A stretch of DNA of 64,000 nucleotides, taken from NCBI RefSeq assembly GCF_044324875.1, contig NZ_CP172185.1; one strand, written 5' to 3'. The notes under the pieces are model-generated. The model saw only the letters and a program-made list of their open reading frames with translations, did no database searches and was not told the origin of the DNA. The DNA is from Escherichia coli. GTDB taxonomy: Bacteria > Pseudomonadota > Gammaproteobacteria > Enterobacterales > Enterobacteriaceae. The position numbers and the translations under genes were made by a program. Of this stretch, positions 62,792 to 63,132 are shown in pieces. Numbering within the stretch: position 1 is the stretch's first letter; every line of letters starts with the position of its first letter.

Positions 62792-62961
62792 GAATATTTT
62801 TTGGTAAGCGTCAAACATGCGCGTTCTGGTTGTGCTTAGCCGGAACCTGTGCGAGCACGATGCCGTTACGTGAAAGGCATCGTGCTATGAAGGGAGATTC
62901 TATCGATGTGGTCAATGGAAGACGGTCACCTGGGATCAATCCGTCTCTATGGTTTATGCAC

Positions 62962-63048
62962 AAAAAATAAGCCCGTGTAAGGGAGATTACACAGGCTAAG
63001 GAGGTGGTTCCTGGTACAGCTAGCATTTTATGGGTTATGTTTTTCAGC
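62962..63048 (-). ncRNA. cyaR: CyaR (RyeE) Hfq-dependent small RNA
   Basis: Minus-strand sequence GCTGAAAAACATAACCCATAAAATGCTAGCTGTACCAGGAACCACCTCCTTAGCCTGTGTAATCTCCCTTACACGGGCTTATTTTTT matches CyaR including its terminator. Confidence 0.85.
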
Positions 63049-63132
63049 GAAACAGATGATAACCTTAATAAATGCAGCTGTATGTGATCGGTTTCTAAGA
63101 ATTTTCCATCCGGGAAAAATAATCGAAATTAA

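Follow-up and report, generated by a model that had tools for sequence, protein, structure and literature searches.

Does the short interval between yegR and yegQ in this Escherichia coli strain represent an empty phage attachment site, or did it once hold a prophage like the one whose remains lie at this place in K-12? The question goes back to an earlier note on the DNA analysed here, a stretch of 64 kb that is called the window throughout. The note had located the small RNA gene cyaR between yegR and yegQ, had seen no P2-like remnant next to it, and had taken this to be consistent with an attachment site that is unoccupied or differently occupied. CyaR (RyeE) is a CRP-activated, Hfq-dependent small RNA. 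The K-12 remnant has reportedly been described before.

The cyaR gene and its neighbourhood

The cyaR (ryeE) gene comprises 87 nt and is encoded on the minus strand (62962..63048). The Rfam covariance model RF00112 (CyaR_RyeE) matches 63050..62965 on the minus strand with 100.7 bits (E 7.7e-20), and because this score exceeds the curated gathering score of 47 and the match spans model positions 1-85 of 85, the gene can be assigned to the family. In a pairwise alignment, 63048..62962 is identical to b4438 of K-12 MG1655 at 87 of 87 positions, so that the exact match reported before is confirmed in strand and coordinates. The gene lies downstream of yegQ/trhP on the same strand, with the cyaR start at 63048 and the yegQ stop at 63133. 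Only the 3' part of yegQ/trhP (63133..64000, minus strand, identified by its ORF and by annotation) is covered, since the gene leaves the window at its end. The species comparison is based on a cyaR pattern scan with at least 120 species representatives, and the position of cyaR 3' of yegQ/trhP is common to K-12 and at least 120 enterobacterial species among the matches listed.

The promoter region of cyaR (63049..63100, minus strand) is identical to that of K-12 except for one base at 63054. It includes a putative CRP-like site, TGTGATCGGTTTCTAA (plus strand, 63083..63098), which has the form TGTGA-N6-TCTAA and whose centre is located about 42 bp upstream of the cyaR start. Expression of CyaR is reportedly dependent on CRP. 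At the other end, the gene has an intrinsic terminator hairpin (62970..62997, minus strand) of 11 pairs including one G.U pair, which is supported by the terminator scan and by the Rfam structure line. In the direction of transcription, the hairpin (62997..62970) is followed by UAUUUUUU, and the scan identifies a Rho-independent terminator with a U-tract, which is the Hfq-binding module.

On the other side of the interval, yegR (62474..62791, plus strand, from the ORF list) encodes a predicted lipoprotein of 105 aa with an LMSGC lipobox. YegR is 96% identical to its K-12 counterpart, and the G+C content is low (0.33-0.42). According to precomputed Pfam assignments, YegR homologues carry PF27694 (YegR); a Pfam search with the YegR of the window itself gave no significant match. 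The next gene is yegS (61160..62059, minus strand), which encodes a lipid kinase and was assigned based on its ORF, the annotation of related genomes, and the synteny in outgroups.

Further away in the window, an IS1 element of 768 bp (58509..59276, with insA/insB on the minus strand) interrupts gatD (58382..58513 and 59360..60199). It is flanked by a 9-bp target duplication, CCGATTTAC, at 58500..58508 and 59277..59285. The gatR gene (60299..61078) is intact in the window; in K-12 MG1655, gatR is presumably the gene disrupted by an IS. Given the interrupted gatD and the intact gatR, the strain is probably galactitol-negative by a different route than K-12.

Comparison with K-12

The stop codons of yegR and yegQ are separated by 341 bp in the window compared to 959 bp in K-12 MG1655. 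This is in agreement with the spacing of about 340 bp given in the earlier note, and K-12 does not share it. The annotated order in MG1655 is trhP - cyaR - cryptic prophage PR-X - yegR, so that the remnant of the ogrK region, which the note had placed beside cyaR in K-12, is indeed found there between cyaR and yegR. PR-X has a length of 629 bp; it contains ogrK and the pseudogene yegZ, which represents part of the late-control D protein (gpD). If the interval is aligned pairwise with K-12, both sequences are colinear on either side and are interrupted by one clean gap of 629 bp over PR-X; neither ogrK nor the gpD fragment is present between cyaR and yegR of the window in this alignment. Because both are absent, the window does not belong to the PR-X type but represents the unoccupied state, and with neither a prophage nor PR-X at the site, yegR and yegQ are left at their short distance.

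In addition to the identities of cyaR and YegR given above, the two loci share the gene order and orientation and an att core within the cyaR terminator. They differ in the PR-X of K-12, where cyaR and the host flank are separated by a P arm, ogrK, a 3' fragment of gene D, and a partial second core. The borders of PR-X are accordingly a full core within the cyaR terminator and the partial second core, ACACGGGCTTATTTTTTT, at the host flank. Furthermore, the flank in the window has 12 extra nucleotides and several substitutions compared to the K-12 flank. The K-12 arrangement probably goes back to a P2-like prophage that integrated there and later lost the DNA between a point in gene D and a point in the distal copy of the core.

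A P2 attachment site within the cyaR terminator

The last 27 nt of cyaR, which read AAAAAATAAGCCCGTGTAAGGGAGATT on the plus strand (62962..62988), match the attP core of phage P2 at 27 of 27 positions (AF063097, 24356-24382, annotated as attP / Int attP core). This core spans the loop, the 3' half of the stem, and the U-tract of the CyaR terminator. Judged by this identity, 62962..62988 is an intact, unoccupied attB, the primary chromosomal attachment site of P2 and its relatives, and it is presumably the site known as locI of E. coli C. The cores of P2 attP and of the window are identical, but the window does not have full arm sites and contains only a decayed P-arm-like copy (21/28). On the P' side of the core, there is no similarity to P2 (score 8 versus 8.5 in shuffles).

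Integration into such a site is established P2 biology. P2 Int, together with IHF, would recombine the identical 27-bp cores of attP and attB, and the phage would enter between cyaR and yegR with ogr-D beside cyaR and int beside yegR. The core copy of the phage would replace the terminator loop, the 3' stem, and the U-tract, and since the phage brings a new 3' half of the terminator, cyaR would stay intact after integration.

Occupied sites are found in other strains. The genome of elppa5 contains a P2-like prophage of 32.9 kb between two perfect cores (positions 1436559 and 1469438 of the record). Its flank on the yegR side agrees with the window at every position as far as the final nucleotide of the core, and the junctions are located exactly at the core ends. 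The genes for int, repressor, and cox lie beside yegR, and ogr, D, and the tail genes lie beside cyaR. In O157:H7 EC4115, A3024, and elppa10, for each of which one side of the insert was examined, P2-like int-C-cox or D-ogr genes adjoin the site. A P2-like prophage is thus present exactly at the core in four of the four split genomes inspected, and the prophages at the cyaR core share the canonical orientation, in which yegR is adjoined by int and cyaR by ogr-D. The idea of an unoccupied phage attachment site in the window is well supported by the perfect core together with the prophages that elppa5 and the three other strains carry there.

The att core of ST131-type genomes has one substitution, GCCTGTGT versus GCCCGTGT (at about 1121..1147 of record L002). 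The T of the ST131 core results in a perfectly paired stem of the CyaR terminator, whereas the window, K-12, and P2 share a C that forms the G.U pair.

Frequency of the empty site

The survey included 5,426 complete E. coli genomes, in 5,423 of which the locus could be matched at all. In 4,564 genomes, the stretch from yegR over cyaR to yegQ is present in one piece, and in about 860 (16%) the locus is split by a large insert. The junction between D' and the host flank that is specific for K-12 was identified in 359 genomes (6.6%). By subtraction, about 4,200 genomes (77%) have neither PR-X nor a large insert, a class that includes genomes with small inserts such as IS1 or the 170-bp segment of ST131. 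The empty site is the majority state in E. coli, and the K-12 remnant is the exception.

These numbers also bear on the possibility that the empty state is derived, meaning that a K-12-type remnant or a prophage was once present and has been lost again by a precise secondary deletion. P2-like prophages are precisely excised by Int/Cox, and any empty site may therefore have been occupied before. Also, the core of the window is the same as in P2 at all 27 positions, including the C of the G.U pair at which ST131 has a T, and this would fit a core that was rewritten by a phage. However, the distal core of PR-X is incomplete and both int and cox are missing, so that it could not be excised by site-specific recombination, and its junction is limited to the 359 genomes mentioned. 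The genomes without a large insert belong to diverse lineages, and the flank of the window differs from that of K-12 by a 12-nt indel and several substitutions and is thus not an allele derived from K-12. A secondary loss is therefore very unlikely.

The risk that the assembly or the window is misleading, in that a collapsed repeat hides a prophage, is negligible. P2-like prophages are known to have caused assembly collapse (PMC3032704), and nothing specific points to such an artefact here. A stretch of 1,101 bp at this locus shows 100% identity to YDC107, a strain with a finished chromosome, and thousands of complete genomes have the locus in the same uninterrupted form.

That cyaR serves as an insertion site of P2 has been reported in the genome paper of E. 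coli W, whose Table 2 lists 'cyaR RNA' as a P2 insertion site (PMC3032704). The site is occupied by Wphi2 in W, by ogr-D' in K-12, and by a P2-type element in B, and it contains nothing in Crooks (PMC3032704). Crooks (ATCC 8739) is a different strain, but its cyaR site is empty as in the window (PMC3032704). The empty P2 site at cyaR is thus a correct observation, but it is already published and ordinary.

A P-arm-like flank beside the core

The statement of the earlier note that there is no P2-like remnant can be kept for a remnant of the K-12 type. It has to be qualified with respect to the flank 62890..62961, which has the appearance of a much older P2-type fossil, as the whole yegR segment probably does, and which is also present in K-12. 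In a BLAST search against phage genomes, 62903..62988 aligns to 24293-24382 of P2, a region that covers the core, the IHF site, and the P-arm site of Int. The P-arm-like element, TCGATGTGGTCAATGGAAGACGGTCACC (62903..62930, plus strand), agrees with the P2 Int P-arm binding site at 21 of 28 positions. Its first 15 nt are identical to the P2 site, and its spacing to the core is nearly the same as in P2. Between this element and the core, 62931..62961 (plus strand) corresponds to the region of the IHF site in P2 attP, based on the alignments and the allele survey. Even without the core, the yegR side (110 nt) reaches a score of 24 against the P2 P arm compared to 8.3 +/- 1.5 in shuffles, and this score, seen on one side of the core only, was reached by 0 of 2000 shuffles (z about 10).

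The window flank, P2, and PR-X are colinear in a multiple alignment. In the same alignment, a perfect 11-bp hairpin downstream of yegR, AGCACGATGCC ... GGCATCGTGCT (62854..62886), is found at the place where P2 has the ogr terminator; it does not contain a T-run and was not called by the terminator scan. The last 10 nt of the core are repeated 89 bp away as AAGGGAGATT (62890..62899, plus strand). It is uncertain whether this repeat represents a partial older core or the decayed tail of a terminator, and it might also have arisen by chance.

The flank exists in different alleles. The window has 12 nt, TCAATCCGTCTC (about 62927..62938), that are missing from K-12 and ST131, whose flanks are the same sequence with a deletion of 12-16 nt. 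This longer allele belongs to the minority, with 129 records of at least 99% identity and another 88 at 95-99% among 5,425 (about 217 records, or about 4%), and its alignment to the IHF/P-arm region of P2 is better than that of the common allele. At this position of the multiple alignment, the divergent Escherichia L033 carries a different P2-like arm. ST131-type genomes have about 170 bp more than the window (790..960 of record L002 versus 62789..62792). Although this extra segment could be taken for a remnant at the att site, it was rejected as such because it directly adjoins the yegR stop codon and lies away from the core.

The yegR segment as a possible older insertion

The arm-like flank is the end of a longer segment of about 815 bp, the yegR segment (62147..62961), and the synteny comparison suggests that this segment was inserted long ago at the att site of cyaR. 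In two other Escherichia lineages (L124 and L126), whose yegS genes are 87% and 85% identical to yegS of the window, the yegS start codon is located within about 85 bp of the cyaR terminator. In Citrobacter, Klebsiella, Raoultella, Kosakonia, Trabulsiella, and others, the distance between cyaR and yegS is about 130-250 bp. A counterpart of 62147..62961 is present in none of these outgroups, which include about 20 other genera among the matches listed. By this synteny, cyaR was originally followed by yegS. The direct junction of the two genes was found in 0-1 of the 5,426 E. coli genomes, and the yegR segment is present in nearly all of them. Its G+C content is as low as that given for yegR (0.33-0.42).

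At the far end of the segment, there is a degenerate copy of the att core, AAAAAATCAGTTCAAGTATGGAGGATT (62147..62173, plus strand), with 19 of 27 positions conserved. It is the best non-self match of the core on both strands of the 64-kb window (128,000 positions), it has the same orientation as the core, and it marks the exact point from which the window is again homologous to the cyaR-yegS junction of other Escherichia species. An extension of the similarity to a longer pseudo-cyaR past the 27-nt core copy at the yegS-side boundary reached a score of 15, which was also reached by 12 of 2000 shuffles. Because this score is weak, we only claim the 27-nt copy of the core.

The segment is thus absent from the relatives, has direct repeats of the core on either side, and carries a phage-type arm next to the core. 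Together with its position at the att site, this combination is characteristic of an old integrated element. A search of 62060..62500 for remnants of int, ogr, or D and for P'-arm DNA revealed nothing above noise. Since the segment contains neither a phage gene nor cargo that is known from phages, its membership in an old element is what we infer from these features. With moderate confidence, the yegR segment can be regarded as an old P2-type remnant. The DNA between cyaR and yegS (about 62147..62961) would then be what is left, in decayed form, of a previous integration at this site, with a P-arm-like stretch kept by the core and a degenerate core at its far end. We also lean, if slightly, towards a history of layered integrations, in which yegR would be domesticated phage cargo and the arm site at 62903..62930, separated from the core by about 32 bp, might still affect the efficiency with which the site is used by P2-like phages.

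The similarity between the flank and P2 could also be read in the opposite direction. According to this explanation, 62890..62961 would be host DNA that was captured by P2 in an aberrant excision, and yegR would be an ordinary E. coli-specific gene without any link to phages. It is true that phages integrating into tRNA or sRNA genes carry host-derived 3' segments of these genes, that no phage gene survives in the yegR segment, and that YegR is not found in phages. However, the segment is not ancestral, because cyaR is directly followed by yegS in other Escherichia species and about 20 genera. In several genera without the E. coli flank, cyaR is also adjoined by P2-type arms of prophages, and this distribution characterises the arm as a feature of the phage family. 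Furthermore, the direct repeat of the degenerate core at the far boundary is the signature of a site-specific insertion, and the divergent Escherichia L033 has its own, different P2-like arm at this position. Capture of host DNA is therefore unlikely. A transfer from the phage to the host would be the most likely direction, given the P2-type arms and genes beside cyaR in Citrobacter, Enterobacter, Trabulsiella, and Buttiauxella genomes without the E. coli flank.

cyaR as a target of P2-like elements outside E. coli

About a dozen of the 120 representatives listed have a P2-type arm or fragments of ogr, D, or int directly after cyaR, among them L007, L024, L027, L030, L083, L087, L098, L103, and L115, which include Citrobacter, Enterobacter, Trabulsiella, Buttiauxella, and others. 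The cyaR gene is an integration site for P2-like elements well beyond E. coli. A contig of 9.7 kb (L120, JAIJJM010000051.1), deposited as MAG: Collinsella sp. (Actinobacteria), contains cyaR, a P2 arm, ogr, and gene D, and the product of its ogr gene is 100% identical to P2 Ogr. This contig is almost certainly a mis-binned E. coli contig.

A case that resembles the yegR segment is found in E. albertii NBRC 107761, where cyaR is followed by a P2-like arm, cdtA-cdtB-cdtC, and then the upstream region of yegS. The interval between cyaR and yegS has about 3.3 kb (4964..8400 of record L008), and its three ORFs were read as cdtA, cdtB, and cdtC. Neither int nor ogr was detected in this interval, and it therefore seems to be the cargo-only residue of a prophage in the cyaR att site. 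Elsewhere, cdt (cytolethal distending toxin) operons are known cargo of P2-like prophages. The E. albertii locus would thus be comparable, in kind and in position, to the residue that we propose for yegR. However, the two differ in cargo, orientation, and size (3.3 kb compared to 0.8 kb), and the cdt genes have documented P2-like phage carriers whereas yegR has none.

YegR in phage collections and elsewhere

In tblastn searches of phage genomes, YegR was found in two records only (ON470606.1 and AY639599.1), in both of which it belongs to host flank at the extreme end of the record. IMG/VR contains 95 matches, all of which are 95-100% identical to YegR and all of which are located at contig ends. 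The IMG/VR matches are over-extended prophage calls and do not represent independent carriage of YegR by phages. In some predicted P2-like viral records carrying yegR (within L137..L216), yegS is also present at the extreme end. The PHROG family phrog_21109 corresponds to YegR and probably results from the same artefact of prophage boundaries.

Divergent YegR homologues are rare and share 44-51% identity (L127 6001..6318 from Enterobacter sp. BIDMC 29, and L130 6001..6321). The Enterobacter homologue is encoded in an IS-rich island beside an omptin gene and an MFS transporter gene. The second homologue, also from an enteric bacterium, is located between the genes for a uracil-DNA glycosylase and a 2-hydroxyacid dehydrogenase. 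Neither context is that of a phage. Because the divergent homologues are scattered in this way, the YegR family appears to be mobile or sporadically distributed.

Implications

We are highly confident that the locus as a whole is best explained by an intact cyaR gene and an empty P2 attB, to which the putative older layer in the yegR segment is secondary. For annotation, the strain can be described as carrying an intact cyaR together with an empty, perfectly matching P2 attachment site, and by the match of the cores it should be lysogenisable by P2 at this site. The ogrK-yegZ remnant of K-12, which is found in 6.6% of the complete genomes, is a peculiarity of a lineage and not the norm of E. 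coli. The location of the site next to yegR also explains a database artefact, namely that yegR is regularly swept into predicted P2-like prophages, as seen in dozens of IMG/VR contigs.

Compared to the known finding of the empty site, the reading of the yegR segment as a layered fossil is a modest addition. It points to a possible origin of the orphan lipoprotein gene yegR, and the segment would be a small, clean example of how an attachment site in a small RNA gene gathers layered prophage debris.
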